IMG/VR virus record: IMGVR_UViG_3300045988_175974
Direction: 5' to 3' (one strand)
DNA: 64,000 bases
From: a virus
Shown here: piece by piece, positions 1,142 through 35,962 of the stretch
Layout: each line of letters begins with the position of its first letter
Position numbering within the stretch: the first letter of the stretch is position 1
The notes under the pieces: generated by a model
What the model was told of the DNA's origin: nothing
Database searches by the model: none
Seen by the model: the letters and a program-made list of their open reading frames with translations, nothing else
Position numbers and translations under genes: made by a program

Positions 1142-1984
1142 CTACTGCTCGCTATAGGTATCAATAATCTCCTTGGCAAACGCTGCATAGCTTTGCGCTG
1201 CATCACATTCAGGAGCATAGGTAAAGATGTCCTGAATCATCGCCTGGGCTTCCACTATCTTGGTACGACGAGGAATTTCTGTCTTGAATACATAATCGCC
1301 ATACTCATCATCTACGTGCTTCGAGAACTCCACGCTTGCCTTGGTACGCTTATCCACCATCACTTTGAGCAAGCCGCGCAAATCGAGATTTGGATTGATT
1401 TCTGCCTTCACCTCTTCTGCCCATTTTATCACACTTGACGAACCGAAGGTAGGCAGGGCTTCCAACTGCATAGGGATGATGATGCCCGTAGCTACTGCCA
1501 TCGCATTCTTGGTAACGAGATTCATAGCCGGTGGGCAGTCGATGATGATATAGTCGAAGGCATCAATCACGCTCTGCTCGCCTCCCTGATCTTCTGGAAG
1601 AGATACAGGCAAGCCGAATATCTTAACCAATACCTTCAGCGGATTCAGCTCTCTCAACAGGAAAGGTTCTACGTTCAGCATATCCTCCGACGATGGGGCG
1701 ATATAGAGATTGCCGCCGTAGTCCTGATCACCTACCCTCACCTGATACACTGGGAGAGAAGTCTTGTTTACCAAAGCCTCATACATGGTACCGTGCTTGT
1801 CGGTGCGATCACGCCAGCCGCAAAGCAAGGACACGTTAGCAACCTGAGCATCCAGGTCAACAATCAACACACGAGAACCATTTTCTCTAATAAGACCACA
1901 TGCCAAATTGTGTGCAGTGGTGCTCTTTCCTACTCCGCCCTTGTCATTCACAATAGCAAGGACCTCCTTTAATTTTTCTGCCAT
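1142..1984 (-). CDS. parA: ParA/Soj-family partition ATPase.
   Basis: Deviant Walker A motif KGGVGKST near the N-terminus. The 280-aa size is typical of type Ib ParA. A DCPP Walker B-like segment is present. Confidence 0.85.
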   Translation of the reverse strand: MAEKLKEVLAIVNDKGGVGKSTTAHNLACGLIRENGSRVLIVDLDAQVANVSLLCGWRDRTDKHGTMYEALVNKTSLPVYQVRVGDQDYGGNLYIAPSSEDMLNVEPFLLRELNPLKVLVKIFGLPVSLPEDQGGEQSVIDAFDYIIIDCPPAMNLVTKNAMAVATGIIIPMQLEALPTFGSSSVIKWAEEVKAEINPNLDLRGLLKVMVDKRTKASVEFSKHVDDEYGDYVFKTEIPRRTKIVEAQAMIQDIFTYAPECDAAQSYAAFAKEIIDTYSEQ

Positions 1985-5360: not shown

Positions 5361-5684
5361 TTACTTCATTTTTACATTTATTGTACTAATAACATATCGC
5401 CATGTAGAACAATCTTTTTTACTACCAAGAAGCTCCGAAAACAGATCATCAAACGTTCTATAAAGATAAATCATACCTTCATCCAAGTCAACTAAGTGTC
5501 TTTTTAAAAGACCCATAAGACGGGTTTTATCCAATCGCTCAACCATCCAATCTTGACACCAGGATAAGTCACTATCATGTCTCAATATGTAATCGCAAAG
5601 AGGTTCAAATGCTCCAAAATATTCAGTACCAAACAAATTCTGACCGCTTTTCATGTCCTGTACTTCAACTTTATAAATAAGCAT
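5361..5684 (-). CDS. Hypothetical protein (107 aa).
   Basis: ATG-initiated ORF co-oriented with its neighbours. Confidence 0.5.
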   Translation of the reverse strand: MLIYKVEVQDMKSGQNLFGTEYFGAFEPLCDYILRHDSDLSWCQDWMVERLDKTRLMGLLKRHLVDLDEGMIYLYRTFDDLFSELLGSKKDCSTWRYVISTINVKMK

Positions 5685-5724
5685 ATCTTATGACTTAACC
5701 GTGATGTCGAGGGCTGAATGATTA

Positions 5725-6252
5725 TTACTTAAAATCTACACCTTTGAGCGGATCATTATCGCCGCCGTTCTCAATCTCGATACCTTCCGGCTTTTCCAGA
5801 AGGAGCTTTCTTGTCGCCTCCAGCATCATAATGGTGTGGATGGTGGCCTGCCTTGCGTGATAGTCTGAGCCGGCATCATCCACATACTGCTTATTCATGC
5901 GGACCAGCGTATTCAGAAAGTCAGCACACTCCTCGCGACTCGGATTGTTCACGTGAACCTCGCAGGTAACAGCCTTCAGAAAGTACTCCATACCCTTTTT
6001 CAGCAAGGTTCTTATTCTGCCCGTATCAGGATGCAGCCCTATCATCTGGTGAATCTTGATTCTCAGGCTGCACCCACGGCGAGGGAAGCCGATGCGGTAA
6101 TCATCGCCCACCTCCTCCTTTTCCTCGTCGATGTAATCTACCTTTGCAATAAAACCGCAATCCTTATCAGTACAGACGAGGAAGTCACACTCACCGCGCT
6201 TGTGATTTCGCAGCGTGTCTATAATAAACAGTGGAATTTCTCTTTTTGCCAT
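5725..6252 (-). CDS. Hypothetical protein (175 aa).
   Basis: ATG-initiated ORF, tightly packed with its neighbours. Confidence 0.55.
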   Translation of the reverse strand: MAKREIPLFIIDTLRNHKRGECDFLVCTDKDCGFIAKVDYIDEEKEEVGDDYRIGFPRRGCSLRIKIHQMIGLHPDTGRIRTLLKKGMEYFLKAVTCEVHVNNPSREECADFLNTLVRMNKQYVDDAGSDYHARQATIHTIMMLEATRKLLLEKPEGIEIENGGDNDPLKGVDFK

Positions 6253-6265
6253 ATCTCCAAGTATT

Positions 6266-6490
6266 TTATGATTCTTTGTAGAGCTGACAATACAGCTCCG
6301 ATCTCATGCGCTTGATATAAAAGACTACTTCGCCCGGTGCAGGCTGATAGTCTGACTTTACAAACATCGCATTCTCGCCGTCTGTGGCTACATACTTCTC
6401 CATCCCGAAGGTATTTTTCGGGATGCTACCCTCATAGTAGCTTTTGGCTACAGAGGATAGTTGCAAGGGTGATAATATCATTTTTTCCAT
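6266..6490 (-). CDS. Hypothetical protein (74 aa).
   Basis: ORF filling the gap between neighbouring genes. Confidence 0.45.
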   Translation of the reverse strand: MEKMILSPLQLSSVAKSYYEGSIPKNTFGMEKYVATDGENAMFVKSDYQPAPGEVVFYIKRMRSELYCQLYKES

Positions 6491-6514
6491 ATTCTATAAA
6501 TAATATATATGATT

Positions 6515-7882
6515 CTACAATTTGTTCATAACGTAACGGATAACACGCTCGGTATATTCCTCAAGACCGAATTTCTTGCCATACTTGCGAAGGTCGGCAA
6601 GTGAAATCTCGGTGGCCTCGTGACCGATGGCAGCCTCGTAGCGGTTTTTGAAGTTCTGAGTACCTGGGCGACAGTTGCCGGAAGCCAAAGACTCTTCAAA
6701 GGTGAACATGTGATTTCCTAACTTCTGATAAACGAGCTGCTCTTTGCTTCTGGCATTCAGCAGACTAAGAGCCTGCTTGTTTCGTTTCTCCGCATTGATA
6801 CGCTGTGCCTCCTTCAAAGATTTAGCTACGATGTGCTCACCCCTTACCAGGAAGCCCTTCACGGTCTTAATATCAGTGATAGCCTTGCCCTGCTCAATCC
6901 ATTCGCAAGCCACGCCCTGGCGCTTGATTTCGCCTCGTACAAAGGTAATCAGACCGCCCACCTCGTAGATGGAATATCCCTTCTTCAGATTCAGGGTGAA
7001 GGAACGGCGCACCATAGTGAATTTGCATCTTTTGCTATATCCGTCGTAATCGTAAGACTCGCTGCACTCTACTCCATTCTTATCGCTGATATGAGCATTA
7101 AGGGTACCGATATTCTTTCCTGTATTCAGCAGAGATATAACCATATCAAAATTAACGGGACCTAAATTATCACAGATACAGATCTGAGCATTGATATAAG
7201 CCAGCTCCTTGGCTCTCGCTTTCGCAGCTTTCTTCGCTGCCTTCTCTTCCTCCTTCTTCTCTGCTGCTTTACGTGCAAGCATATCCAGATACTCGTTTTC
7301 GTTGGCAAGACTGTTCTTTTCCAGATACTTCTTGAATGCCCTCTCAGCGAAACCGATATACTTGTGAACCTTGGCTGCACGTTTGATTGCATCCTTCTCG
7401 CACTCACCGATACGGATAGAACCACCCAGGAACTCCACCTCATTTTTGCCCTTCAAGTAGTCTGTACAACGCATCCAGGTAGCGCAAGCTACGGAAACGG
7501 AAGAAATCACGTAGTTATTGATGCAGCAGTGCTTATAATCGTTCTTGCGCTTATAAGCCTTCTCGATGTCAGCGAGGAAGTTTGGGGCGATGATGAAGAA
7601 CTCATCAGCATTGAAATCTACAGGCGCATTCTCTTTTACGAAATAACTTCTGAAATAAAACTCACGCTCGGTATATACATCCATCTTATAACTATCCGCA
7701 AGCGGAAGATTAAAAAAGCAGCAGGAAGCAACGCCCCAGCGAACACGCTCATCCATACCAAAAGGATGGATAGATACCTCACGCCCCTTGTGCTCGTCTG
7801 CCTCGTCAAATCTGAACGAACCAAAGCATACGTCAGCGTCTTCACGAACTCTGTTCTTAAACTCCTTGAAAGTGATAATCAT
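6515..7882 (-). CDS. Hypothetical protein (455 aa) with a central K/E/A-rich coiled segment.
   Basis: Long ORF. A TAnnTTTG box (TACCTTTG, plus coordinates 7975-7982) lies upstream. Confidence 0.6.
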   Translation of the reverse strand: MIITFKEFKNRVREDADVCFGSFRFDEADEHKGREVSIHPFGMDERVRWGVASCCFFNLPLADSYKMDVYTEREFYFRSYFVKENAPVDFNADEFFIIAPNFLADIEKAYKRKNDYKHCCINNYVISSVSVACATWMRCTDYLKGKNEVEFLGGSIRIGECEKDAIKRAAKVHKYIGFAERAFKKYLEKNSLANENEYLDMLARKAAEKKEEEKAAKKAAKARAKELAYINAQICICDNLGPVNFDMVISLLNTGKNIGTLNAHISDKNGVECSESYDYDGYSKRCKFTMVRRSFTLNLKKGYSIYEVGGLITFVRGEIKRQGVACEWIEQGKAITDIKTVKGFLVRGEHIVAKSLKEAQRINAEKRNKQALSLLNARSKEQLVYQKLGNHMFTFEESLASGNCRPGTQNFKNRYEAAIGHEATEISLADLRKYGKKFGLEEYTERVIRYVMNKL

Positions 7883-8104
7883 ATTCTCTGCTCATGCCCT
7901 TGAGACTTATTTGGCTATCTGGCACAGCCGGTTATTATTATTGTTTTTATTTATCTTCTTGTTTTTATCTGATGCAAAGGTACAAAGAATTTCTGAAACC
8001 ACAAAATAAAATGCACTTTAATTACGTATTTAGGTGCATTTTTAACGTTTATTTTATTTGCAAAGTAAATTCTCGCCACCTTTTTATCTTCTTTTCTTCT
8101 CTTG

Positions 8105-14555: not shown

Positions 14556-15404
14556 TTATAAACTTTCATTTATCAGACGATACCAAAACGAAAAAGGCTT
14601 TGTGAAATGTGGCTTTTGCGCTTTTTCAAACTCAGAAGGGAAAAAGTACGAAAGTACTGCCATTGTATTAATAGCAACAAAAGCCATGAAATCAAGGCCA
14701 ACAGTTAGCACAAGGACCGAGCCAAGGAGTGCGCCACAGATGCTGCCGCAAATGCCCAGCGCCTCGACGATTGAAGCTATCGCAGACACCGCAACGTAAA
14801 CAGACAAGAGACCAACCGCGAAGAATACAACCAGACTAAAGACAAACGCCGCCTTTTCTGCTGCTGCCTTTGCGCCGTTCTTCATCTTTGCCAGGATGCC
14901 GGCGAGCTTGGAAGGCTCGCAAGCTGTTGCGTTTTCTTCGTTATCTTCGCCCTCGCCGTTCTCTTCGTCCTTCGCAGACTCTATGCAATGAATCATATAA
15001 ACGTTGCCGGCGTTGTCTGCCTCACTGTCTACAAGTTCGCCAGGATTAATTCCGCGAGCCTCGCAAGCTTTGATATATTCCCAGGCTAAATCTACTAAAA
15101 TCTTGGTTTTGCCTGTCTTCTCGATGTCCTCGATTGCTTCGGCTACCGTTTCATCTTCGCGTGCCTTCTGCTCCAGCATCTCGCCTGCGATGAAGTCGGC
15201 GCGGTCGTATCTGCTTGCTAAGTATTTGTTGCGGTTGCGGTCGATGAAGTAGTAACGGCCGTTACACTTGCGAAAGCCGATAATAACCTCGTATTCGTTC
15301 GCACTGCTGATATTGTAAGCCTGCACGCCCTGGTAATTAAGATCGAAAAACAAATCATTGTTCACAATCTCCTTCAACTGCTTGATATTATTATTCTTTC
15401 TCAT
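14556..15404 (-). CDS. Hypothetical protein (282 aa) with a C-terminal multi-pass membrane region.
   Basis: Soluble N-terminal half. The C-terminal ~90 aa are hydrophobic (FVFSLVVFFAVGLLSVYVAVSAIASIV...). Confidence 0.55.
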   Translation of the reverse strand: MRKNNNIKQLKEIVNNDLFFDLNYQGVQAYNISSANEYEVIIGFRKCNGRYYFIDRNRNKYLASRYDRADFIAGEMLEQKAREDETVAEAIEDIEKTGKTKILVDLAWEYIKACEARGINPGELVDSEADNAGNVYMIHCIESAKDEENGEGEDNEENATACEPSKLAGILAKMKNGAKAAAEKAAFVFSLVVFFAVGLLSVYVAVSAIASIVEALGICGSICGALLGSVLVLTVGLDFMAFVAINTMAVLSYFFPSEFEKAQKPHFTKPFSFWYRLINESL

Positions 15405-15640
15405 AACTTTATTATTTTAATGTTTGACTTTGTTTTTGTTTTATGCTGCAAAAGTACAATTAAAACTTAATACTGCAAAATAATTTCGCCGAAAAGTTCA
15501 TTTTAACTTTAATATTTAACCTTTATAAACATTAAATGTATTAATCTTTTATTTAACTACTTAATTTATCGTTTAATACTTACTTAATATATCACTTAAT
15601 AAACTGCATCGTTTTAATTATACGTACCTTATTATATATA

Positions 15641-16135
15641 GAGGAAGAGCAAGGGGAGAGAGAAGAACGGGGCGAAGGATGCCGCCGCCATCTTCGCCCG
15701 TTCCTCGCCTCTCTTCTGTTCTGTCTGCTGTCCTCACCGTCCACACCATCGCCAGCCGCTCACCACTTCGCCACCATCGCATCAGCAACCAGGACGAGAG
15801 GAAGGGCGGCCACCCCGTCCGGTTCTGGGCGATGTCATCGCCACCACCTCGCCACACCTCGCCACCGATCGACAAGCAGCCACAAAACAGCAGGGCAGCG
15901 CCTCGGGCTGTCGGGAATCCTGCCCGCCTCGTCCTCGTCCCCGTCCTCTTCCCCTCCGTCAGGGGGGTGAGGGTAGGGCAGCGAGCCAGCCAGGGCGGGC
16001 GAGCCCCTCTCGCTCACCCTGCCGACCCTCTCCACCCTGCCGGGGTGCTTTCTCATATATGCGGACACCTCCGGAGAGGGGAGGGGGGCGTGTCAACATA
16101 GCAGAGCGGCGAGGCTCGTCTTCGAGAAAGTTTGT
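15641..16135. other. GC-rich, strand-asymmetric, hairpin-rich non-coding island. Candidate structured RNA or origin element.
   Basis: It sits in a 1.1-kb gene-free gap with AT-rich flanks. Nested complementary segments are visible by eye. The ORFs here translate to P/R/S/G-rich nonsense. Confidence 0.4.
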
Positions 16136-16316
16136 TTCGGGATTTTTTTTACGGTTGTATCGCTCTAAATATCAATTATTTAATTTCTCCGCTAGGCTAT
16201 GCCGCGCAAAGCCTGTGTATCGAGGAAACGATAATGACACTTAAAGTATGAAAGATAACTAATTAAAAGCCAAATAGTTAGAGGGGAAAATTATTAATTT
16301 GTTTTAGTATGTTTAT

Positions 16317-16404
16317 AAAGCTTTTGCCCTTACAGGGCGAAGGAAACCGCACGCCTATACCCAGGGTGATACCCTGGGCTAGGAGCTTCTGCCCTTGCAG
16401 GGCT
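16317..16404 (-). repeat. Family A triple-hairpin intergenic repeat, copy A1.
   Basis: AAAGCTTTTGCCCTTACAGGGCG...TACCCAGGGTGATACCCTGGGCTAGGAGCTTCTGCCCTTGCAGGGC. Confidence 0.85.
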
Positions 16405-16496
16405 TGCAGGTTAATAAACTAGCAAATGCTTCTACAGCGTGCGGCTTGCGTATTTCTATCTTTTCGTTCAATCTTCGAGCTTCTTTCTTCTGCCGA

Positions 16497-17210
16497 TTAG
16501 TCCTCGAACATCGAGAAGGCTTCTGGACCTTCCAGCTTAAAGGCGGTCTCTACGTACACCAATTTATTGATGCAGTTACGATAGGCATGATAATAAGCTC
16601 GGCTTTTATTTAAGATATTAGACAAGGAACCTTCCTCTCTTACATCTCCATCTTCTATGCCGGCATTGGATAGCGTACCTTTTACGATTTCAAAACGATC
16701 TTCTATCATTGTATTGTAGCGAGCCAAAGGTGCAAGGGTCTCTTCAAGACCCATCGGTACTGACTGGAAGACCTGATTGCCGAGACTAATGCCGCCACCT
16801 GCTACCTTGTGGAATACCTGGCGATAAACCTCGAATACCGGACGAACCTTGCGGGCGATGAAGAACTCAAGGCATGGAACACTAAGCATATAAGTGTTTT
16901 GTGGGCGACCTCCCACATTTCTGCCATCATCTTGTGCGTCATCAGACTTTTTGCCATTTTGGGCAAAAACTCCATCGGTTTTTTGCCCATTTGGGGTAAA
17001 AACTTGATAATCAATACCCTCAACAAACAATTCGTTTGTACGAAGTGCTCTTACCGCCTTACCTTTTTCCTTATAAGCTAATGCCCAAACCTCATCCAGA
17101 TTCACCGGAAACTCCTCCTTGCTTCTTGAAAGGTTCAACACTTGGATAAAGTATGCCTTTATCTCACTATCACTACTCTGCTTTGTTAACTGAAACTTAT
17201 TGTTTACCAT
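16497..17210 (-). CDS. Hypothetical protein (237 aa). A possible phage DNA-binding or antirepressor-like N-terminal domain.
   Basis: The segment PVNLDEVWALAY...KAVRAL...EGIDYQVF loosely resembles KilA-N/antirepressor-type domains. The assignment is weak. Confidence 0.35.
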   Translation of the reverse strand: MVNNKFQLTKQSSDSEIKAYFIQVLNLSRSKEEFPVNLDEVWALAYKEKGKAVRALRTNELFVEGIDYQVFTPNGQKTDGVFAQNGKKSDDAQDDGRNVGGRPQNTYMLSVPCLEFFIARKVRPVFEVYRQVFHKVAGGGISLGNQVFQSVPMGLEETLAPLARYNTMIEDRFEIVKGTLSNAGIEDGDVREEGSLSNILNKSRAYYHAYRNCINKLVYVETAFKLEGPEAFSMFED

Positions 17211-17283
17211 GATTTCTTACTTTTAAAATGAATACATACCTAATTTTTAACCTTTTGGTAAAAAAGTACCCAAAGAAAAATTA

Positions 17284-17487
17284 TCAGTTCGCAACAGATG
17301 CTTTAGGTTGGAACGTAGAGCGTAAACAATCGCACAATACTTCTACTCCCATCGTATAGGAAGTAACTCTGTCGTCGCTCATCTGAGAGAAATCGGGTGG
17401 TGCAGTGGCAAGCTGCTCGATTACTGCCGTGGCTGCCTCCTGAAGGTCAGCTTTACCCATTGGTAGGGTAATGGTTGTTTCTTTCAT
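17284..17487 (-). CDS. Hypothetical protein (67 aa), first minus-strand gene of the divergent control region.
   Basis: ATG-initiated ORF divergent from the XRE gene. Confidence 0.4.
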   Translation of the reverse strand: MKETTITLPMGKADLQEAATAVIEQLATAPPDFSQMSDDRVTSYTMGVEVLCDCLRSTFQPKASVAN

Positions 17488-17837
17488 TTTTTATATATAT
17501 TTATTAGACATGCGCACATTATTAATTTAAAAGAAGCAGTGCGCCTCGCCCCTTGTCTAATGGCATACATATCAGGAAAATGAATAACCCTTTAAATAGC
17601 CACGCCAGCGACATTACATCGCAAGCAGGGGAGTGCGCACTGCAATATTGCGTATGCGACATCTCTGTATCAGAGACACAGCATGTGCTTCGATACAATA
17701 TTCATTTCCGATATGTTTTATTTTTTAGACGGTGCAAAGATACTGAGTTTTATCGAAACAACCAAACATTTTTCGAGAAAAATTCATTTTTACGTGAATA
17801 TTTCTACAAAAATCTTGTTTATATCAATATTTCTTTG

Positions 17838-17845
17838 TACTTTTG
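17838..17845 (+). promoter_or_regulatory. -7 promoter box TACTTTTG for the XRE gene.
   Basis: TAnnTTTG match 34 nt upstream of ATG 17879. Confidence 0.5.
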
Positions 17846-17878
17846 CAGCGAAATATAAACAATAAATTCAATTTATAG

Positions 17879-18298
17879 ATGAAGAAACTAGATATTAAAC
17901 GTGCTCTAAGCGAACACAATATGACACAGGCAGACCTCTATCAGAAAATCGGTATGTCGCCGCAAGCCATCTGCATGATCATCAAGAACAACAACCCCAC
18001 CGTTGCCAAGCTGATGCAGATAGCTGAAGGCATCGGCTGCGACATCACCGACCTCTTCTATCCCGACCCTGCGGAAGAGGCAGAAGAGAAAGAGACTCCT
18101 GCCGAAACGGAAAACAGTGGTGAAACTCTGGACGCTACGCTACGGGGCGATTTGCCGGAAGGTGTCATCGAAAGAGACGTGAATTTTGTGCAGCAGGCAG
18201 AAGAAAATCAGCAGCAGATGATTCAGACTTCCACCTTCTGCCCTCACTGCGGAAAGAAAGTAAGGGTAGGAGTGGTGCTGCTTCCCGAAGAAGGATAA
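17879..18298 (+). CDS. XRE/Cro-CI-family helix-turn-helix regulator with a C-terminal CxxC zinc-ribbon-like tail. Candidate phage repressor.
   Basis: HTH segment NMTQADLYQKIGMSPQAICMIIKNNNPTVAKLMQIAEGIGCDITDLF, with C-terminal CPHCGKKV. It is one of only two plus-strand genes. Confidence 0.8.
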   Translation: MKKLDIKRALSEHNMTQADLYQKIGMSPQAICMIIKNNNPTVAKLMQIAEGIGCDITDLFYPDPAEEAEEKETPAETENSGETLDATLRGDLPEGVIERDVNFVQQAEENQQQMIQTSTFCPHCGKKVRVGVVLLPEEG

Positions 18299-19922: not shown

Positions 19923-20038
19923 AATGTTTACATTTTATAGTTCAACAATATGCTCCTTATGAGAGCGTTCACACTAACAAAGATGGCTCGGAAGTTTGCT
20001 CTAAACAGGTAGCGTGGACCTCAGAAAGCCGATTCCAA

Positions 20039-20082
20039 CTCTTCGGAGATTCTTCGGAGATTCTTCGGAGGTTCTTCGGAGG
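20039..20082. repeat. Four tandem 11-bp units TTCTTCGGAG(A/G).
   Basis: Read directly. The array lies between a minus-strand promoter (20152-20188) and the ATG at 19922. Confidence 0.85.
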
Positions 20083-20151
20083 TTGTTCGCAAAACGATTT
20101 TCCTCTTTCCATCCTATCTCCTAGCGTTCGCCTTCGGGTAATCTTATGATG

Positions 20152-20346: not shown

Positions 20347-20358
20347 TGGGGTGGGGGG

Positions 20359-20488
20359 AGCTTTTGCCCTTACAGGGCGACAGGCGTGCGACTACCGTTA
20401 CCCAGGGCGATTGCCCTGGGCTAGGAGGGGCTGCCCTTTCAGGGCGCATGGGTGAAGGAGGGGCTGCCTTTTCAGGGCGCATGGGTGA
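20359..20488 (-). repeat. Family A repeat, copy A2, with its 33-bp terminal module tandemly duplicated (20423-20455 and 20456-20488).
   Basis: Read directly. A third partial unit overlaps the stop codon of the 153-aa gene. Confidence 0.85.
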
Positions 20489-21151: not shown

Positions 21152-22573
21152 TCAGAATATCCGATAATCTGGTTTGATTCTAATACTCTCGTAATGTCCT
21201 TTTACGTAAAAATATTTCCAAAAGTTATTACCTAGGTTGATGATGTTTCTCTTGCGTATCATATAGGTTTGATGATGCACGCAGAAGCCGAGATAAGAAT
21301 TGATTACCTGCTCTATTCTCTCCAGGTCATAATAGGTGATATTTCTGTTTTCGTCGAGCTGCTTTCTGAATCCGGAAACACGCTCCTGGAATCTGCCTAT
21401 GGTTCTCGAACTGACGTAGGTGCGACCGGGCTTGATATAGCCTCCTACGAACAGTACTCCGTGGCTAACAGGCTGCAAATATTTCTTGTCATTATGTATA
21501 TGGATTCCATAAATTGAGGTGACGGCTACGAGCCGGGGAACTACCTGGAGTATCTTATACTTATCATCGCAGATAATGAGAAAATCATCGACGAATCGGA
21601 TGATTCTGAAATTAGCTCCACGCATCAGGAAGAGAAGCCAGATGTCGAATAGGATGGATAGATAGAAATTAGCAAATTGCTGGGTAGTGTGATTGCCGAT
21701 AGGTCCGCCCAGGTTGCGGTCTATCGTGAACATTGATTTGCTTTTCGGTAGTTTTTGCCATTCTTTAGGATCGCCATTGATGATGCAGTCGTCTTCGGGG
21801 TGATGAAAAATAACGGTCTTCACGGTTCTGAGAAGAATTTCCTTGTCGCCTCCGTTGTAGTGCCTGCGGATAAAACGCTCTAGCAGGTACCATAAGAGAT
21901 TTCTGCGAATAGACATGAAGAAGCTTACCAGGTCGCCCTTGAATACCCAGGCTTGCTGGGTGTAATTCTCCGATACCTCCCTCATTCCTTTTTCCGCAGC
22001 CCTGACTGCTGCCAGTGTTCCGAATCCCTTGCGGCAGTTGAAGGAGATATTTCCCATCTGCCGGAATCGCTTCTCAAACAGTGGTTCCAGGCGAATAATG
22101 ATCCAATGATGCACGATACGGTCACGAAAATCCGCTGCGAAAACTTCTCGCAGTTTCGGGTATTTTACAAGAAAACAAATGGATATGGTTGGCAGGTATA
22201 TTGCCATGTAGATTTCGTAGGCTAATTTAGGTAAGTCTTCTGTGGCTATTTTCATATATGCGATAGTGTGAGGGGATGACATCTTTCCCCGCTTACAGTC
22301 AAGATAGGCTTCGCAAACTGCCTTGATAGCTTCTCTGAATCCCCCGTATGCCACTGCCGCCCTCACCGTTAAGCCGTTGTACTTGTTGTTGCCGTTAGTG
22401 TTGCCGTCGTTGGAGTTCACGTTCCACGCGTTGTTGCGGCTGTTCTCAGTACTAGCCCAATAGTTCGCGGATTTCTGCGGTATTGCATCTTCGTAACTTG
22501 CATGATCGGTAGAGCCGCCACTGCAAGTAAACCGCCCATTCAGTAAGATTCGACCTAGTTCTCTTCTGCTCAC
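21152..22573 (-). CDS. DGR-type reverse transcriptase. The ORF runs from GTG 22573; the true start is uncertain.
   Basis: Motifs include KRGK...PKLREVFAADFRDRIVHHW, GNHTTQQFANFYL and the catalytic box IRFVDDFLI. The TR lies within the first 97 codons. Confidence 0.85.
   Translation of the reverse strand: MSRRELGRILLNGRFTCSGGSTDHASYEDAIPQKSANYWASTENSRNNAWNVNSNDGNTNGNNKYNGLTVRAAVAYGGFREAIKAVCEAYLDCKRGKMSSPHTIAYMKIATEDLPKLAYEIYMAIYLPTISICFLVKYPKLREVFAADFRDRIVHHWIIIRLEPLFEKRFRQMGNISFNCRKGFGTLAAVRAAEKGMREVSENYTQQAWVFKGDLVSFFMSIRRNLLWYLLERFIRRHYNGGDKEILLRTVKTVIFHHPEDDCIINGDPKEWQKLPKSKSMFTIDRNLGGPIGNHTTQQFANFYLSILFDIWLLFLMRGANFRIIRFVDDFLIICDDKYKILQVVPRLVAVTSIYGIHIHNDKKYLQPVSHGVLFVGGYIKPGRTYVSSRTIGRFQERVSGFRKQLDENRNITYYDLERIEQVINSYLGFCVHHQTYMIRKRNIINLGNNFWKYFYVKGHYESIRIKPDYRIF
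22348..22473 (-). repeat. DGR template repeat (TR).
   Basis: 126 nt collinear with the VR. Translates as the Asn-rich YWASTENSRNNAWNVNSNDGNTNGNNKYNG. Confidence 0.85.
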
Positions 22574-23052
22574 GCCTCACCTCCTTTCGGGGCTAGCGAC
22601 AAAACAGAACCCTCGCTAGCGGGTAACGAACCTCGCCATGCCATTAACTGGTTCTGGATACCCTTTACGTGACTTTGCGCCTTCTTGAGAAGGTCTTTTG
22701 AGATAAGATGATTTTTCTCTAACAATACAAAGTCCTGTCTGAGATTCTTGACAAACACGATTGCCTGACCTATATACCATCGTCTATCCTCTGTAGAGAA
22801 ACTTACATCTGCGCTGCCGATTGAGGTTGCGAGATTATCTGCTTCTTCATATAGAGAGTCAGTGAACCGACGAAGGTTGCGCGGAGCATTCTTAGCGATG
22901 CCGATGATGACAAACTTCAGATTGCCCACAGCCCGGTAAACCGGCAGTTGTGCCAAGGTCAGTTTGCGTTGAGCCTTCTTGTGTAAGGAGTTTTCTATCG
23001 CATCCTGCGAAATCAAAACTCCACTATCGTTAATGTCTTTTATTTTCTCCAT
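22570..23052 (-). CDS. avd: Avd-like accessory variability determinant (four-helix-bundle type, 160 aa from ATG 23052).
   Basis: It lies between the VR and TR. The protein is basic and predicted helical. Its stop overlaps the RT GTG (GTGA). Confidence 0.6.
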   Translation of the reverse strand: MEKIKDINDSGVLISQDAIENSLHKKAQRKLTLAQLPVYRAVGNLKFVIIGIAKNAPRNLRRFTDSLYEEADNLATSIGSADVSFSTEDRRWYIGQAIVFVKNLRQDFVLLEKNHLISKDLLKKAQSHVKGIQNQLMAWRGSLPASEGSVLSLAPKGGEA

Positions 23053-23060
23053 ATTGGCTG

Positions 23061-23092
23061 CAAAGATAACAAAAATCCGCCAGACTGCCAAA
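23061..23092 (-). promoter_or_regulatory. Promoter for avd-TR-RT: TTTG, N20 spacer, TATCTTTG.
   Basis: Plus strand shows CAAAGATA at 23061-23068 and CAAA at 23089-23092. The leader before ATG 23052 is very short. Confidence 0.45.
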
Positions 23093-23145
23093 AATTCCGG
23101 GAAGTTTTAATGTAATTACACATAAAATGGCGATTTTTGCGACAA

Positions 23146-23181
23146 AATTCCCCCTGCAAGCTGGCGCTTGCAGGGGGAATT
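23146..23181 (-). terminator. Perfect 16-bp stem with a 4-nt loop, downstream of the VR and target-gene stop.
   Basis: AATTCCCCCTGCAAGC, TGGC, GCTTGCAGGGGGAATT read directly. Confidence 0.6.
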
Positions 23182-23254
23182 GCATAAAAGATGATAGCTC
23201 CCTAAAATGTGCGGCGTTTTTAAAAAACGCCGAAGTGAGGTCTTAGGCTATCGC

Positions 23255-26200
23255 CTAAAGGCTGAAGGTGAATGCCACTGCCGCCCTCACCGAGAAGCTG
23301 ATGTACTTGTAGTAGCCGCCAGTGTAGCCGTCGTAGGAGTACACGTGCCACGCGTAGCCGCGGCTGCTCTCAGTACTAGCCCAATAGACCGCGGATTGAT
23401 ACATCATAGCAACAGGGCAGACGGCAGATTTATCCTTAGCTCGCTTCAGCAGATTGGCGAATAACGGCGTTACAGCCTCGCTCTCCGGTCGCTCATTGGC
23501 GTAATCGATGGATGCGGCGGTATTGTTCTGCCATCCCCTACTGTTACCGAAGAAGTTATAGACTCTCGCCAGCTCGCCTTCTGAAGGTAGATACCAGTTG
23601 CCTTTCTTGTACTGCTCATTCAGCGTAGAGGTTCCGCTGACCGATGGCTCGTAAAGATGGCATCCGTATGCAGCAGGGTAATAGAGCTGCTTCCAGGTGT
23701 CAGGATATGTAGCACCCTCATCTGCCTTCTTTTTTACAAGCGCCGCCATACGATTAGACAATTCCTGTAGCGTTTTCGGATAGGACTCATCAAGATAGAG
23801 ACTGATCACATTGTTCGCCCATCGTACTATAGCATCAGTGTTGCTTTTTCCGTCAAACTCGTTCAATCTAGATTTCGGGTCGAGCACCTTGTAACCGTCT
23901 TCTGTTGTAGTATCCTGATACGATTCCGTCGTAATTCTACCGTCTTCTTTCAGCTCACCATCCTCATTCGTATTATAGAGTTCTCGAGTATATCCATTCG
24001 GCAGGTCCGCAATATCACAAATATCGCCAACACCCACAGCAGTACCTATCTCATCAAGCACATCCTGTCCGACCGTATATAGAAGATAATTATTACCATC
24101 TGTATTATCGGTTATTGCAGGAAAGATACCCCAAGGAATGTACGATGAATTGATGGTCTTGTCATCTGACACATAAGAGACGTTCTCGGCAGAATACACT
24201 CTTAACCGGATTTGGCTATCTGAGAGCTTTTCCGACTTGAATACTACTCCTACACACGTCTTAGACGTATCAAGCTCATCATCGAAACTTCCGTCAGAAT
24301 ATGCAAAATCACCGACTCTAGGAATGCGGTTATAGAAACCGACACCTTTAGTATAGGTCAGCTCCGTCCCGTCTGTCAGTTCAATGCGCACCCTTACCTG
24401 GAATTTCAAATCCAGCGAAGCATCAGAAAGTTTTTTTACGTTCAGCGTACCCTTCACATGGTCGGTAAACTCGGCATATTGCCCGGCTTGCTCCGCATTA
24501 TCTCCCACAAACTGATAATCTACGGCAGGGCGATTATTCCTCACCGCGATATTGTTACCAGAAGTAGGAAGAATATCCAGTTTCCACTGGTTCCATATAC
24601 CCGTCTGCTTGATATATTTATCGCCGCCTACTTGAATCTTGCTAATCGTTCGCTTCGGATAAGACACATACAGAGGGTTGCTTGTGCTCTGAATGTTTCC
24701 GTACTTTTCTATCAGGTCGAAGACCTCAGCAAAAGTCAGCAATCCAGCCGAACCGTCAATAAGAATTATCTTACCGCTTATCGTGCTGCTCTTGGCAGCG
24801 GTCAGGTATCTGAGCACATCCGCTCTCATCGAGCGGTAGTTTACTCCCGTAAGCTTCACGGTGGATAATGCGAGCGGACTACCTTCCTGCTTGTACTCAT
24901 AGATAGACGTAACAAGCGCCTCGGAACTGATACCCAGGCTGGAATCATCACATTCGAGCGAAACAAGCTGACTAGCTCCCTGCAAGGAAACCATCTTCAA
25001 AACTGGCAACTCTGAGAGTGACAGCTTCGAGAGATTGGCGGGGAGCGCCACACTTGTCAGTACCTTGCTCTTAGGCAATCGCACATCGTAGATAGCCGTA
25101 TCCTTAACGTTGATGGTATGCAGTCGCACCAGATTGGTTGTATCTAGCGAACCGCCGATCTCCACGCATCCCTTCAGCGACAACTTCTGCACTTGAAGTG
25201 CAGAAACGATAATGTTGTTCGGACGGAACGCAGGAACCATCTTGCCAGTCACCATATCCTTATAGAGCATGGTAGGCTCGGCTATTACCTCCGTTAATCT
25301 CTTGCCGTTAATGGTAACGGAAAGGTTCGGAGAAGTAGAGAGATTACCGATGTTGCCGATGGAGTGGTAGTAATTGATACCCAGGATTGAGAGACCCGTA
25401 TCATTGGAAGTGGTCGTACCCAGATTCAACTCATATTCCTCATCCGGCGCTACACGCACGTGAGGGTCCACGCTGGTCTGTCCCATCATACCGGTAGGGT
25501 AAAGATACTGCGAAGGTTTCACCTTGAACTTATATTCCGTTGCCGAAGTAGCAGAATCAGGAAGGTGGAATGCCTGCATCGCAAAAGTATCGGTTACGTC
25601 TGCCACACCGATATTCTCACTCTTACCGCCATCGAAGAGATTACCCCAGGCTGCGTAGCTCGCCATATAGACCAGTCGCTGCTTCATATACTGCCGCTCA
25701 CCGAGGATAGATGATCCGCACGACTGCGTGATAGGAGCCACACCGCGCGCACCGGAACCGGAACTGATGAATCCGAGCATCGCAGGATATTCGTATCTGA
25801 TACGAGCCTGCTCCGCGAAAGCAATCTCACTGAAATAGCAGTTTACATAGAAGAGATACTTCCACAGACAGCCCCATACGCTCACCTTTGATGTTCCGTT
25901 CCAGCCCTCGATATGGTCGTTTTCTGATACCAGCTTACACATCGCAGAGAAGATGGATTTCAGCATCGACTGCAATTCACGGGTATTCTCGTAAGCTTCC
26001 TCACAGAGATTGAACAATACATTGTTCATACCCTCATACTGCGAAGTAGTCTTGTCGTTGTCGGCATAAGGGTGCATACGATCCACGTAATATTTTTTGG
26101 TAAATCTTCCGTTGTTGTCGGTCGCCATGATGGTATCTACGTCGTCCTGATGCAGCTCCATCAATACGCAGTGCCTGGTCTCGCCATCGATGGTTACATC

Positions 26201-29200
26201 CTTCTCCGTGGCAAGCACATAGTAGGTGTTCTTGGAACAGTTGTCCGTACCTGCCATAAAATGATTGATGAAGGCGTAATGGAAACGGAGGCTCTTTTCA
26301 TCGATATACCAGCCGACGTACTTTTTGAAGTGAGCCACGATAGCGGCAATCAGCTCTTCGTTGAGCTTGGCAAACTGCGCCTTATTAGCAGACGCATTAT
26401 AGGCAGCTTGCGTCATCTCGTAGGTACGGAGATCGATACGCTCGAAAGCGCCGTTCTTCCACAATCCGGCATCTACCCACTTCCTGTTTACGAAATTGTA
26501 TCGTTTCAGGACATAGGCATCATCACCCTGCGTACACCAATACTTGAACTGGGTATTCTTTGCCTCGTCAGACAACTGGAAATCATTGAAAGTGCCAACG
26601 TAATGTTTGATTCTCGGAGCATGCAGATAAATGAAGTTGAATATCTCAGCTATTCTATTGGTCAGATGGTCCTTCGGATATTCCTTGCCGTTTATCACGG
26701 TGGTGGCTCCCCCATCAAAATCGATGCACTGCAATCCGTTGTAGAAGTAACCCTCGTCATCCGGAGAATAGGTAATAACTTCAGGGCAGGTTTTATCCAA
26801 CGTAAACGGAACTCGCATATCCGTCAGGTCGTAGTTGTTATCCGAACCCTCAAACATAGCGAAGTTAGGATAAAGCTTCTTGACATATCCCCACGTTGGC
26901 TTATCCATCTTTCCAGCTCCGAAATTGCCGCCGCCACGGAATACAGGCTTGCTCTCTCCCTCGCCTTGCGTAAAGAAATATACAGGTTCGGTGTACTTGG
27001 CAACTCGTGCCGTAGAGCAGGCTTGCTGAAGCGAGTTCTTGCCCACAACGATGTCGTGAAGGTCGTTAAAGAGACGACAGCAACCGGTAAGGTGTGACTG
27101 CATGGAAGAGGCATAGTTGATTTTCAGCACCAGCTTCACAGCGTAAGGAGTATTGAAACCTACCTGATAGCCAGCACCGCGGTACTTGCCGTTGCCGTCA
27201 ATCCATCCGTCAGGAACCTCTACCGATGGCACACCCGCTACCTCTACGTATCTGTAGAGCTTTGCTTCATTCTTCACCGGATCAGATTTTCCGAGATTAC
27301 CACCGTAAATAGCGACGAATCTCTCTGTTTCCTGCGTCTCGGCATTGGTAACAGGGTCTTGCAATACCCACGTCAGGTTGCTGCCCAGATTTACGAGAGG
27401 TACGATAATAACACCTGCGTCCGAAATCTTGGTCTGGTGATTAGAGTAGAAGTAAGTGTTAGCGGTAGAACCCTGACGCTTATCCTTCATCTTGGTCTCC
27501 TTGCAGATGGTACCAGAAAGTTCCGGAATATAGTTGCCATCCTCGTCATATTGAAAAATCTCCCACCATACCTTCTGCGAACCGCTGTTGTAGAAGTACG
27601 GCTCCACGCCGTGCAGAATCAGCACACGTTTGCCGAGTGCCTTCACCTTCTCAACATCCACTTTCTCGCCCGTGAGAATGTCGTTGCGCTTGCGTGCCGC
27701 ATTCTTCTCCTCGGTGGTCGGCAGAGTAGAAATGTAATCATCAATGACATTCTTGCTCTCCAACTGCATGTTCTGGTAGCATCGGAACGAATAAATATCA
27801 ATATCGGCTGCCTCCTGACCGATGGTGATACCGCCGTTACTCATCGCTCCGGTGCAGAACTCCTCCTTGTTGGATGTAGAGAACTTCACTTCTCTCACCG
27901 GGTCGCCATTCAGAAAAATGCGCGCCAGCGGAATGGTCGTGGCTGCGGTATTCAGTGAATCACTGGTAGGTACCAGTGCATCACCTTTGTTTGGTATCAC
28001 GGCATTATGGATGTTCAGTGCCAGATGTACACGTTCATTTTCTTCAATGTGGAAATCTACCTCCGAGTCGGTGCTGTTGGATGCAGAATAGATATAGCCT
28101 TCCAATGGCAGGAGTTTGAAACCGATGGTATTGCCAGCCACCTGCTCGCAGATTTGGATGATTGCCTTCTTGGTATCGGTGACGTTGCGCACGCGAAGGT
28201 CGAACTCGAAGGTCATAGACGAATCCGGGGTAGTGTAAAACTGAGAGAACGGATTGAACTTGAAGTTGACCGATGATCCGGCAGGCACACGGAGCACCTT
28301 GATACCGTCTTCGGCAGTTACCCAACCGTCATTTACAAAACCGAAATTCTTCCAGGTGCTCGCCACCTCGGCATTGTTTGCCTTGGCATTATAAATCTTG
28401 CGAGGGTCCTTCTCGGTATTGTTGCGCACTTTTGGATTGAGCAGGAATGTGGCTCCTGCGGTAGGCGCATAAGCCTCGGTGTTATCGATGTCGATGCTGA
28501 CATTATCTACGCCCATACAGTCGGTGAGGAAATCCACCTCCTCGTCGCCTACCTTACGGTACGCACGGAAATAGGCAGTAAACTTGTTGGACTGCTCATC
28601 CAATTCAATTTCCACCGTAGTGGAGAGGGTTGACTGAACGCCAGGCTGCACGTCCTGCTCTACACGGAAGTATTCTGTCACCTTATCGGAAGGGAACTTG
28701 TCGGTATAGGAGGTAAGATAGAAGATGGTGGTAACATTACCGCCATCATTGGTGATGCTTCCATCGCTGTTTACCTTCGGGCTATACACCGCATAATCGC
28801 AAAGCTTCACCTGAGTGAAGTTGACCGCCTCCTTTACCAGGTTCTGAATCATCAGATACGGCTTTCTAATATCCACACCTGCGGTCTGGGGATTGATGAT
28901 CATAAAACGGTTCTCCAGAACATCCGATTTCAGCGTGCCACCCAATCCGTCGTCGCAGGTAAGCCAAGCCTTTACCAGTCGCACACCGTGAGTAAAGAGC
29001 TTGTAGGTATCTGTAGGGTCCTTGTAAGTGCTTCGCACGGTGGTTCCGTTCTCGGTAGAGGCAGAATCACGGTTGATGGTCAACACCTGACCATTGCCAC
29101 CGGTAATCTCTATATGCAGGGTTTTCTGCACCTCGCCGTTCACCAGGTAGGCATAAGGGAAACCATTCGCCTGCTGGGTAGCGGCATAGATGGGGGTATG

Positions 29201-29926: not shown

Positions 29927-30058
29927 ATAAAATATGTTTAATTTTTCCAACCTAGATTTTCCGTCCAAGGCTTCTCGTTAAGCCATAGACCGCTAGCGAA
30001 GCATGATAATACCGCTACCGCTGCCATTAACAATCGTCTTCTGAATCTACTCATAAGC

Positions 30059-35778: not shown

Positions 35779-35815
35779 CAAAGATAAAGGTTTTTGCGGT
35801 TTTAAGGGGGACAAA
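35779..35815 (-). promoter_or_regulatory. Promoter: TTTGTCCCC, N20 spacer, TATCTTTGCCC.
   Basis: Plus strand shows CAAAGATA at 35779-35786 and GGGGACAAA at 35807-35815. Confidence 0.55.
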
Positions 35816-35962
35816 AAAGCTTTTGCCCTTTCAGGGCGCATTGATGCTGCTGCCATTACCCAGGGTGTTACCCTGGGCTAGGAGCTGCTGCCCCTTCAGG
35901 GCGTATAGACGACGATAAGGGCAGCAGGGCGTATAGGCGATGATAGGACTGCAGGGCGTGCT
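35815..35962 (-). repeat. Family A repeat, copy A3, with extra CAGGGCGTATAG-type modules.
   Basis: AAAAGCTTTTGCCCTTTCAGGGCG...TACCCAGGGTGTTACCCTGGGCTAGGAGCTGCTGCCCCTTCAGGGCG followed by two further CAGGGCGT repeats. Confidence 0.85.

Follow-up and report, generated by a model that had tools for sequence, protein, structure and literature searches.

RNA-primed replication origins have been documented mainly in small proteobacterial plasmids, in T-odd and T-even phages and in mitochondria, and we know of none documented in Bacteroidota. We describe here a GC-rich non-coding island found in the window, i.e. the whole 64-kb stretch of viral DNA that was analysed (IMG/VR record IMGVR_UViG_3300045988_175974). 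It may be likened to ColE1 RNA II and to R-loop origins (T7, ori(uvsY) and ori(34) of T4, the mitochondrial CSB region). Like these origins, the locus displays a promoter-like motif, several hundred nucleotides of structured, GC-rich non-coding sequence and a G-rich end by an AT-rich site, and it has no adjacent initiator gene. Its variable 5' part also recalls the incompatibility determinants of the ColE1 family. On the other hand, and unlike in ColE1, the island has no recognisable promoter for an antisense RNA, and its own transcript is a predicted one; the G-richness of that transcript is not kept across the window-type core, and the host is a member of the Bacteroidota, with a replicon of about 100 kb.

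Another comparison is offered by the iteron loci oriR and incA of P1. Here too the element is a phage-plasmid, and the relatives of the window carry direct repeats of ~20 nt beside an AT-rich region; as at the incompatibility loci of plasmid-prophages, related elements differ strongly. However, the island has neither a neighbouring rep gene nor DnaA boxes, its window allele is devoid of regular iterons, and the repeats of the relatives differ from those of P1 in being near-perfect and in turning over fast. With the c4 RNA of P1, the CI RNA of P4 and the CA RNA of N15, the island shares a non-coding and hairpin-containing sequence, a position in an immunity/antirepressor region and allelic specificity; as for P_RE of lambda, a plus-sense island RNA would oppose the antirepressor operon as an antisense transcript and have the same sense as the repressor gene. 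Those RNAs are nevertheless short, lie upstream of their targets and have a defined complementarity to them, whereas no such complementarity was found for the island, which lies downstream of the antirepressor gene. Finally, tandem units of 21-80 nt, copy-number variation and assembly breaks are common to the island and to bacterial VNTR loci, but the island has fixed boundaries, keeps its GC-richness in every allele and is sequence-constrained in its non-repetitive allele.

Genomic setting of the island

The genome looks like a ~100-kb phage-plasmid from the gut, with a ParA protein, a CI-like HTH repressor and an AntA-like antirepressor (Table 1). The closest matches of the window for ParA and for the repeats are Segatella copri plasmids, and for the antirepressor-like protein next to the island the protein collection searched contains over 3500 homologues. 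In the window, an orf67-antirepressor cassette is located between the island and the HTH repressor gene, on the opposite strand. In the relatives L016 and L191-L194, the island and its right flank are found directly upstream of the Zn-ribbon HTH repressor orthologue, on the same strand. A search for tRNA and tmRNA genes was negative.

The island occupies a gap of 1092 nt (15405-16496) flanked by two minus-strand ORFs. As the first-pass annotation had proposed, this gap is the longest gene-free stretch of the window when ORFs of at least 120 aa are considered. We scanned the composition in 200-nt windows (genome mean GC 0.471, sd 0.064), and the contrast claimed between a GC-rich island and an AT-rich flank was borne out: the highest value of the 64 kb (0.72, at 15891) falls inside the island and the lowest (0.185, 15403-15602) directly adjoins it. 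The first half of the island is indeed C-rich and G-poor on the plus strand, with C 0.42 and G 0.21 over 15700-15890, C 0.46 and G 0.27 over 15890-15960, and a GC skew of -0.31 over 15700-15899. The complementary segments that had been pointed out are all present, and are recovered both among the listed repeats and in the minimum free energy fold of the plus strand; only CTGCCC had been placed one base off and is found at 15920-15925.

Within the AT-rich flank, a Bacteroidota-type -7 box, TACTTTTG, is present on the minus strand at about 15449-15456 and a CTGCAAARrTA block is kept in all relatives. The interior of this flank (15405-15625) evolves like neutral sequence (identity 0.51-0.57), and its ACTTAAT-type repeats are lineage-specific (identity 0.34-0.59). 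At the other end of the gap, the multi-hairpin repeat element occurs in five copies in the window, with matches in other phage contigs from the gut and in a plasmid of Segatella copri; a sub-threshold match to Acido-Lenti-1 was noted at 16360-16404 (30 bits vs a gathering score of 37). Only this separate element gave matches in the phage and plasmid databases, where no homologue of the island was found, and no description of the locus was found in the literature.

Table 1. Coordinates of the island, of its boundaries and of relevant genes in the window.
Feature	Position	Strand	Remarks
ParA gene	1142-1984		AT-rich repeat cluster upstream
Membrane-protein gene, unannotated	14556-15404	minus	Neighbour of the island
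AT-rich flank	15405-15625		About 18-23% GC; predicted promoter of the downstream minus-strand gene
Left boundary motif ACCTTATTATATATAGAG	15626-15643	plus	TATA-like; GC-rich core directly 3'
Hairpin H1	15641-15735		Purine-rich arm 15641-15681 pairs with pyrimidine-rich arm 15688-15735
C-rich, G-poor tract	15736-15892	plus	Same-orientation short repeats CATCGCCA and YCTCGCCAC; families D1, D3, D7
Alternating G-/C-cluster block	15893-16053		Pairings GGGCAG/CTGCCC and GAGGGTAGGGCAGCGAG/CTCGCTCACCCTGCCGACCCTC; left arm CCTCTTCCCCTCC
3' module, ~105 nt	16054-16161	plus	GCATAT..., purine cluster, CAGrGyGGCGG...; ends just before the right motif
Right boundary motif GCTCTAAATATCAATTATTTA	16162-16182	plus	Imperfect palindrome TAAATA-N5-TATTTA
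Conserved right flank	16183-16312		Identity 0.74-0.81; variable stem TCTCCGC...GCGGGGA
Multi-hairpin repeat element	16317-16413		After the antirepressor-like stop; in the gap, not part of the island
AntA/KilAC-like antirepressor gene	16497-17210	minus	PF08346 matched by 7/17 homologues
CI-like HTH gene	17879-18298

Conserved boundaries and alternative cores

Relatives of the locus were recovered with the right motif GCTCTAAATATCAATTATTTA as query. Complete relatives include the contigs OVGI01000063 (102,112 bp, sequenced at ~231x), UEPW01000050 and ORPK01000085. The island is found at the same place in about 35 of them, with a GC content of 60-72% in every allele vs 47% for the genome. Its edges, which are fixed and AT-rich, are the two near-invariant motifs, between which the core differs from one relative to another. 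The left motif is 0.90-0.95 identical in five relatives, occurs with both types of core described below and has one exact copy in the window. The right motif is unique in the window, where no match is expected by chance, and its reverse complement resembles the left motif. We found no convincing extra copies of either motif that would make it a recurrent phage promoter. With a 15-nt query for the left motif in viral contigs, most of the matches listed were due to chance, and a scan of bacterial and archaeal genome contigs with the right motif revealed no relative, all 21 matches being chance-like. Inspection of the sequence shows no agreement of the left motif with the -33/-7 consensus of Bacteroidota promoters. 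When the architecture of the locus was compared with the AT-rich region upstream of parA, only a generic promoter box could be aligned.

Two types of core were observed. The window type consists of a long purine/pyrimidine hairpin and C-rich tracts, and the other type of tandem repeats rich in G and T, whose periods range over 21-80 nt at 93-100% identity. BLAST detected no homology between them, only the flanks matching; it did not reveal inverted homology either, and an inversion was thus rejected as the origin of the two types. The strand of G-richness also differs, the window type being C-rich on the plus strand (15700-15960) and the repeat type G-rich on that strand. The type of core is uncoupled from the flanks, and unrelated alternative cores distributed in this way are typical of specificity determinants.

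Sequence blocks of the window type are 0.72-0.96 identical among relatives, vs 0.43-0.65 for third codon positions of the neighbouring genes, which argues that this core is under sequence constraint. Identity is 0.72-0.96 for hairpin H1 and 0.76-0.84 over 15956-16055; the G runs of the alternating G-/C-cluster block (15893-16053) vary by 1-nt indels among relatives. An alignment of 22 relatives showed that the 3' module is common to both core types; its plus strand is G-rich in most alleles (G 0.27-0.38 vs C 0.18-0.28). Beyond the right motif, a 9-bp inverted repeat, TAACTAATT-N7-AAATAGTTA (16256-16280), forms a palindrome that is unique in the window. None of the ~35 alleles has lost its core while keeping both motifs. 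The locus is nonetheless not essential, since it is absent from this position in one relative, L015. In L152 there is a junction with a host transporter gene, a candidate recombination product.

Repeat slippage in the core is rapid. In the window, a slippage-prone unit of 10-11 nt is located at about 15836-15866 (TRF period 10, 2.7 copies), and the 11-nt unit is present in two copies in L189 and four in L190, which are near-identical relatives. L090 and L099 differ by an 86-nt deletion between CCATCGCCA repeats. Among repeat-type alleles, L091, L097 and L104 carry a 60-nt unit in 2.2, 2.4 and 3.5 copies, respectively, and a 39-nt unit is repeated at least 7.6 times in L093 and 4.0 times in L102. 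Tandem copy number thus varies between close relatives in the manner of minisatellite/VNTR loci. Sub-periods of 19-24 nt are visible in the repeat-type relatives and the window has no regular iterons; it carries TCGCCAC motifs in one orientation, spaced by about 10, 10, 19 and 70 nt, and the orientation of these motifs differs between the core types.

Folding, coding and site analyses

The first-pass annotation had described the island as hairpin-dense. This holds for the first hairpin, H1, made of inverted repeats I3 and I20 and including the pairing 15665-15681/15688-15703 reported initially; elsewhere, comparison with shuffled sequences indicates mostly an effect of composition. The plus-strand fold of the 525-nt island has a z-score of -1.42 (an equally good fold is reached by 8 of 100 dinucleotide shuffles) and the minus-strand fold one of -2.55, and a hairpin proposed by hand is 77.2% paired, no better than its shuffles (75.7 +/- 1.5%). 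With mononucleotide shuffles, H1 has z-scores mostly between -2.5 and -9 in eight relatives, the weakest being L095 (about -1.5 to -1.8). Its two arms expand together in L084, and one compensatory change was noticed by eye (ACGG/CCGT in L189 vs ATGG/CCAT in L090). RNAalifold found 0/30 compensatory pairs in the best-conserved block (15885-16052), with a positive covariation term (+1.72), and no consensus structure in the shared 3' module. No Rfam family reached its gathering score over the whole window, and a sensitive E-value scan of 15300-16600 gave, for the island, only generic miRNA-hairpin noise. Together with the replacement of the core by unrelated tandem repeats in many relatives, these results speak against the large structured non-coding RNA that had been envisaged. 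The island resembles a site for the control of replication or immunity, its putative function, more than it resembles a gene for a folded RNA.

As anticipated, the ORFs of the island are not protein-like: they are P/R/S/G-rich and unconserved in relatives. A six-frame comparison of ~25 alleles revealed no conserved ORF, frames and lengths being different, and ORFs break even between near-identical relatives. Some repeat periods (59 and 80 nt) are not divisible by three, and indels of 1, 4 and 11 nt separate close relatives. A conserved ATATG on the minus strand was considered as a gene start and rejected, as it opens ORFs of 15-140 aa in different frames. Distant relatives harbour small GC-rich genes at the position of the island; a decayed gene was rejected too, as tblastn with these genes returned low-complexity noise in the islands.

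A packaging site, also put forward initially, does not fit the neighbourhood, which is made of the antirepressor-like and membrane-protein genes, and the search revealed no terminase gene beside the locus. Several contigs have an end within the island, but contig 160689 closes on itself through a 38-nt overlap inside a 21-nt tandem repeat, and these ends are therefore breaks of circular assemblies and not genome termini.

Regarding replication signals, 25 of 26 alleles have no canonical G-quadruplex on either strand (four runs of at least three G, loops of 1-7 nt), and few G4Hunter windows exceed 1.2 among the 26. No DnaA box (up to one mismatch) was found in 15405-16496 and no rep or initiator gene adjoins the island. 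The motif GCTGGTGG recurs in repeat-type alleles, but it is neither enriched nor skewed elsewhere in the window and was rejected as a Chi-like hotspot; the Chi sequence of Bacteroides was reported as unknown in 2010 (PMC2887965).

Altogether, the initial observation was partly confirmed, the island being real, non-coding, compositionally exceptional and conserved in relatives, and the interpretation given to it is partly supported overall.

Discussion

The best explanation for this locus places it in the early/immunity region of a Segatella-type phage-plasmid. We tentatively propose, as a possibility that we hold with limited confidence, that the island could be the variable core of a constrained non-coding locus dedicated to transcription-linked replication or incompatibility control. 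The left motif ACCTTATTATATATAGAG would drive rightward transcription through the GC-rich core, and the purine- or G-rich transcript, together with the G-rich 3' module, would act at the adjacent AT-rich right motif. The latter would be a transcription-dependent replication start of the R-loop or pre-primer type, and the interchangeable core could set replication or incompatibility specificity among co-circulating relatives. The transcription of the island, its direction and any role in replication are what we infer from this arrangement.

The island may hold an R-loop or G-rich origin, one of the initial suggestions. The juxtaposition of AT- and GC-rich sequences, the repeats and the phage-plasmid lifestyle are in its favor, and an AT-rich region (15403-15602, GC 0.185) is present directly beside the island, as expected for an origin. 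Against it, the G-rich strand differs between core types, neither canonical G-quadruplexes nor DnaA boxes nor an adjacent rep gene are present, the window's own allele has no regular iterons, and the left motif is unlike a Bacteroidota -33/-7 promoter. Moreover, the AT-rich repeat cluster that adjoins parA (2080-2320) is an alternative candidate for the plasmid origin.

Other readings of the island have to be considered. The locus could produce a long non-coding plus-strand RNA for immunity control, a rather doubtful hypothesis: transcribed from the left motif, this RNA would be antisense to, and convergent with, the antirepressor operon and would run towards the HTH repressor gene, its core determining specificity. 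The location in the immunity region, between the AntA-like gene and the early operon, is consistent with this idea, as is the position of island and flank directly upstream of the Zn-ribbon HTH orthologue in L016 and L191-L194, on the same strand. A conserved motif followed by variable sequence is what would be expected of a promoter and its transcript, alternative cores would fit heteroimmunity, and the window-type sequence is constrained. However, no host-type promoter or terminator is recognisable, covariation is lacking, complementarity to the neighbouring start regions is unconvincing (only 73-75% matches of about 20 nt) and a read-through of 2.2 kb to the repressor gene is speculative. 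It is unlikely that the island is instead a minus-strand transcription terminator or insulator, placed between the antirepressor operon and a following operon with a promoter of its own. Window-type alleles would then terminate at the long GC hairpin H1 and the pyrimidine/U-rich tail behind it, and repeat-type alleles at a long C-rich, G-poor, unstructured tract loading Rho. H1 is robust, usually more stable in the minus sense, and its minus-sense tail, by the left motif, is pyrimidine-rich in relatives; the minus-sense RNA of repeat-type alleles is C-rich and G-poor (C 0.38-0.47, G 0.16-0.23) and folds worse than its shuffles (z +0.2 to +4.2); the downstream gene is provided with a conserved -7 box of its own; and a constraint on composition, not on sequence, would explain the variable repeats. 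Yet 500 nt is far above the size of a terminator, and the repeat element after the antirepressor stop already resembles a 3' hairpin cluster. The window itself has a poor U tract behind H1 (CUCUAUAUAUAAU), and a terminator consensus scan called only a small inner hairpin and not H1. The rut criterion (C-rich, G-poor, unstructured, at least 80 nt) is uninformative, because the minus-sense tracts of the repeat type (73-242 nt) share these properties with many places in the genome. A terminator would also leave the conserved 3' module, the right flank and the sequence-level constraint unexplained.

One could also assume that the core is a tolerated minisatellite, a slippage-prone filler without function between separately functional flanks (one regulating the leftward gene, the other forming the 3' region of the antirepressor gene). 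Near-perfect tandem repeats (periods of 21-80 nt, 93-100% identity), copy numbers differing between near-identical phages, deletions between short direct repeats, the occurrence of unrelated cores at one position and the absence of the locus from one relative all point in this direction. Nevertheless, we consider it quite unlikely: among ~35 alleles there is not one in which both motifs persist without a core, GC never leaves the range of 60-72% (vs 47% in the genome), and window-type blocks are far more conserved than third codon positions of the neighbours. The sub-periods of 19-24 nt in repeat-type alleles, the TCGCCAC motifs that share one orientation in the window (about 10, 10, 19 and 70 nt apart) and the adjoining AT-rich region could otherwise suggest an array of protein-binding sites, belonging to an iteron-type origin or to a locus of copy control, with an initiator encoded elsewhere and an AT-rich unwinding element beside the array; selection on incompatibility would fit its variability. 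This is very unlikely, however, as neither an adjacent initiator gene nor DnaA boxes are present, the repeats are too perfect and their turnover too fast for old arrays, periods of 39, 59, 60 and 80 nt are not helically phased, and the motif orientation differs between core types. As for a conserved structured non-coding RNA gene, a small protein gene or a pac/cos site, these are already largely refuted and hardly credible. A stable fold, a conserved ATG-containing motif (GCATAT, plus strand) with open minus-strand frames behind it in several alleles, and contigs ending in the island may be invoked for them. They are opposed by the lack of Rfam matches and covariation, by ORFs of varying frame and length with non-triplet repeat periods and 1-nt indels, by contig ends that are assembly breaks in the tandem repeats of a circular assembly, and by neighbours that are not terminase genes.

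Returning to transcription-linked replication or incompatibility control, a further step, which we regard as speculative and rather improbable, would be that the locus represents a new kind of specificity determinant of Bacteroidota phage-plasmids, either an origin primed by transcription and independent of Rep or an immunity element based on RNA, whose GC-rich body is swapped as a cassette between boundary motifs. If so, core swapping would let co-circulating relatives avoid cross-incompatibility or cross-immunity.

The ~100-kb phage-plasmids to which this island family belongs are abundant in human gut metagenomes, and to our knowledge almost nothing is known about the setting of replication and immunity in the phage-plasmids of Segatella/Prevotella. 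A practical consequence concerns their assembly: tandem-repeat alleles break assemblies, and contig ends at this locus should therefore not be taken as genome termini. A swappable non-coding locus with conserved boundaries could define the origin or incompatibility groups; it could serve as a typing marker and could explain the coexistence of related elements in one host population.

Results

The island and its alleles

The gap 15405-16496 is, as the first-pass annotation had stated, the longest gene-free stretch of the window, being the longest free of ORFs of 120 aa or more, and it is flanked by two minus-strand ORFs (Table). We profiled GC content in 200-nt windows (genome average 0.471, sd 0.064). 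The maximum of the 64 kb (0.72, at 15891) falls within the GC-rich island (15641-16135) and the minimum (0.185, at 15403) immediately adjoins it, which bears out the abrupt switch from AT-rich to GC-rich sequence noted initially; the first half is indeed C-rich and G-poor on the plus strand. The ORFs of the island had been judged not protein-like, and none is conserved on the plus or the minus strand: they vary in frame and length, and reading is interrupted between near-identical phages. Coding is further contradicted by repeats with periods of 59 and 80 nt and by indels of 1, 4 and 11 nt. In a distant relative (L018; such labels denote relatives' versions of the locus), two small genes that look real and have a GC content of about 66% occupy the equivalent position (about 5615-6500), with no detectable similarity to the island.

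Coordinates and properties of the features discussed
Feature	Position	Strand	Remarks
ParA	1142-1984	minus	182-aa ORF downstream
282-aa protein	14556-15404	minus	C-terminal membrane segment
AT-rich interior	15456-15620		identity to window 0.51-0.57
Left motif	15626-15643		identity to window 0.90-0.95
Purine-rich block	15641-15700	plus	G 0.42, A 0.28
Core block	15656-15760		identity to window 0.72-0.96
C-rich block	15700-15960	plus	C 0.42-0.46, G 0.21-0.27
Core block	15956-16055		identity to window 0.76-0.84
G-clusters alternating with C-clusters	15960-16135	plus
237-aa protein	16497-17210	minus	other gap neighbour
CI-type HTH gene	17879-18298
Retroelement RT ORF	21152-22573	minus	diversity-generating retroelement
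Retroelement TR; VR	22348-22473; 23272-23397		126-nt template/variable repeat pair
Multi-hairpin element	16317-16413, 20357-20488, 35815-35912, 38510-38602, 50120-50216		five copies
Second hairpin family	44440-44474, 46319-46353, 49781-49815, 55726-55760	minus	four copies
Third codon positions, flanking genes			identity 0.43-0.65, four more distant relatives

By means of the flanking proteins and the right-hand motif, about 35 distinct alleles were recovered, the source contigs being viral or metagenomic and 76-113 kb long. In every one the core measures 150-665 nt with 60-72% GC, between two near-invariant AT-rich motifs (left ACCTTATTATATATAGAG, right GCTCTAAATATCAATTATTTA). A module of ~105 nt (GCATAT ... 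CAGrGyGGCGG ...), common to the alleles, lies just before the right motif, on whose far side about 150 nt of flank are conserved as well. In one relative, L015, the locus is missing from the corresponding position. The cores are of two unrelated types. Type A, that of the window, comprises a purine-rich leader, a first hairpin (H1, 15641-15735), C-rich tracts and G/C clusters. Type B is built from tandem repeats, rich in G/T and poor in A, with periods of 21, 24, 39, 59, 60 and 80 nt and 93-100% identity. BLAST between the two types on both strands found no homology, only the flanks matching. The flanks do not track core type: L093 has a type B core, yet its 3' module is 93% identical to the window's, and the 3' modules of L105 and L107 (type B) are shared with L089 and L103 (type A). 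The locus is thus non-coding, with conserved boundaries and alternative cores.

Identity to the window was compared by region in five type-A relatives (Table). The AT-rich interior evolves as neutral sequence would. The type-A core does not, and is therefore no neutral filler: it either experiences purifying selection or spread recently. One allele class is thus constrained at the sequence level, and GC-richness is kept in every allele. The locus is also highly mutable: among near-identical phages a 60-nt unit is present in 2.2, 2.4 or 3.5 copies and an 11-nt unit in 2 or 4 copies, and modules are deleted between short direct repeats (L090 versus L099, for example).

Several contigs terminate within the island, which had been proposed as a packaging-related site. 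Since contig 160689 circularises through a 38-nt overlap in a 21-nt tandem repeat, these ends are assembly breaks, not termini, and the proposal found no support. In L152 (metagenome contig ORCL01001097, 8630 nt), at about 7390-7990, the phage is fused inside a type-B repeat to a host-like EamA/DMT transporter gene, of which the 5' two-thirds are present, about 18 nt (GCGGTGGGCGGTGTGT) being common to both. The junction is an assembly chimera or else a genuine product of short-homology recombination.

RNA folding

All the pairings first proposed are present at the positions given, save that CTGCCC lies at 15920-15925. The description of the island as hairpin-dense holds for H1 only: the whole folds near shuffled energy (z -1.42 for the plus and -2.55 for the minus strand), so that hairpin density is largely a consequence of GC content. 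H1 is the sole well-supported structure. In eight relatives its z-score lies mostly between -2.5 and -9 (the exception, L095, has about -1.5 to -1.8), its arms lengthen jointly to about 100 bp in L084, and inspection by eye shows one compensatory pair (ACGG/CCGT versus ATGG/CCAT). In the minus sense the fold is usually stabler, since mismatches that read A·C on the plus strand become G·U there. Type B cores lack H1. The large structured non-coding RNA initially suggested found no match in Rfam, RNAalifold gave 0/30 compensatory pairs and a positive covariation term for the best-conserved type-A block, and the shared 3' module yielded no consensus fold. A hairpin scheme drawn by eye was rejected (77.2% paired versus 75.7 +/- 1.5% in column shuffles).

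Genomic context and other repeats

Within the 531-2352 region, an AT-rich segment upstream of ParA (about 2080-2320), the second most AT-rich of the window, is packed with short repeats (TACGTA, AAATAGATAGATA). It is likely a centromere, a plasmid origin or both, and identifies the element as a phage-plasmid. For ParA the nearest relatives are in Segatella copri plasmids, as is one repeat-element match; the right motif, searched for in bacterial and archaeal genome contigs, gave chance-looking matches only, and no chromosomal copy. We infer a phage-plasmid of ~100 kb in a Segatella/Prevotella host.

The island is located in the early/immunity region. Homologues of the 237-aa protein match antirepressor models (AntA, 7/17; KilAC; Rha). 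Further downstream are a DnaJ-headed polyvalent protein and methyltransferases, the remainder of the window holding structural and lysis genes and the retroelement. In L016 and L191-L194 the island and its flank stand directly upstream of the orthologue of the Zn-ribbon HTH repressor, with which they share a strand; in the window an orf67-antirepressor cassette on the opposite strand separates the two. Compared with window 16183-18298, this gene shifts position between relatives: in some it directly follows the right flank, convergent with the antirepressor gene, in the window it is beyond the cassette, and some relatives have two HTH genes.

The diversity-generating retroelement (21152-23397) looks complete, with 17/18 TR/VR mismatches at template adenines; VR is at the 3' end of a 2237-aa ORF (23255-29968), and hence at the C-terminal end of its giant product, which is probably tail-fibre-like. 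Each copy of a ~100-nt multi-hairpin element (GCCCTTACAGGGC ... CCCAGGGTGATACCCTGGG ... GCCCTTGCAGGGC) lies just past the point where a minus-strand gene stops. Other gut phage contigs and a Segatella copri plasmid carry the element too, and one portion reaches 30 bits with the Rfam Acido-Lenti-1 model, short of the gathering score of 37. The second hairpin family (GTTCCCAGCGATTCTATCGCTGG; 80-91% identity) is intergenic or intragenic. Tandem 11-nt repeats (GATTCTTCGGA/GGTTCTTCGGA) at 20037-20093 and 63103-63170 form an inverted pair 43 kb apart (complementarity 79-85%) that could be paired protein-binding or recombination sites. A beta-ketoacyl synthase-like protein with both KS domains (37264-38466) and a LysR-type regulator (54031-54675) are unusual phage cargo.

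Discussion

We class the island as a non-coding control or origin-like region; neither the phage and plasmid collections nor the literature searched yielded a description of it. Its working would be most like that of ColE1-type or R-loop-primed origins or of iteron and antisense incompatibility loci, or alternatively of RNA-based immunity regions (P1 c4, P4 CI, N15 CA); by their defining tests it could be assigned to none of these systems. Canonical G-quadruplexes in the island and DnaA boxes at the locus were not supported, and no adjacent rep gene was found. A Chi-like role, and use of either boundary motif as a recurrent phage promoter, were tested and received no support.

Two clues favour transcription to the right, on the plus strand, which would start from the left motif: the repressor synteny in L016 and L191-L194, and the variable sequence that comes after a conserved motif. 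A plus-strand regulatory RNA acting in the immunity circuit is conceivable but rather unlikely. A sense-strand terminator or insulator is unlikely. The minus-sense RNA of all alleles has C-rich, Rho-loading-like tracts, long and unstructured in type B; by the same definition such tracts occur throughout the genome. The locus satisfies the definition of a VNTR, and a tolerated minisatellite between two independently functional flanks is an improbable reading; it departs from ordinary VNTRs in that its boundaries are fixed, its GC-richness is maintained and its non-repetitive allele is constrained. An iteron-type protein-binding array, which the type B repeats might recall, is more doubtful still, and a structured non-coding RNA, coding gene or packaging site is very improbable given the folding, reading-frame and contig-end results.

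Our tentative preference goes to a locus of transcription-linked replication or incompatibility control. Against it, core strand bias is opposite in types A and B, no recognisable promoter was found at the locus, and the parA-adjacent repeats (2080-2320) are a rival origin candidate that weakens this reading. We prefer replication or incompatibility control because it accounts for the AT/GC juxtaposition, the promoter-like, AT-rich conserved end motifs and the G-rich shared module, requires no neighbouring rep gene, and explains the swappable core, which would act as a specificity determinant among co-circulating plasmid prophages.
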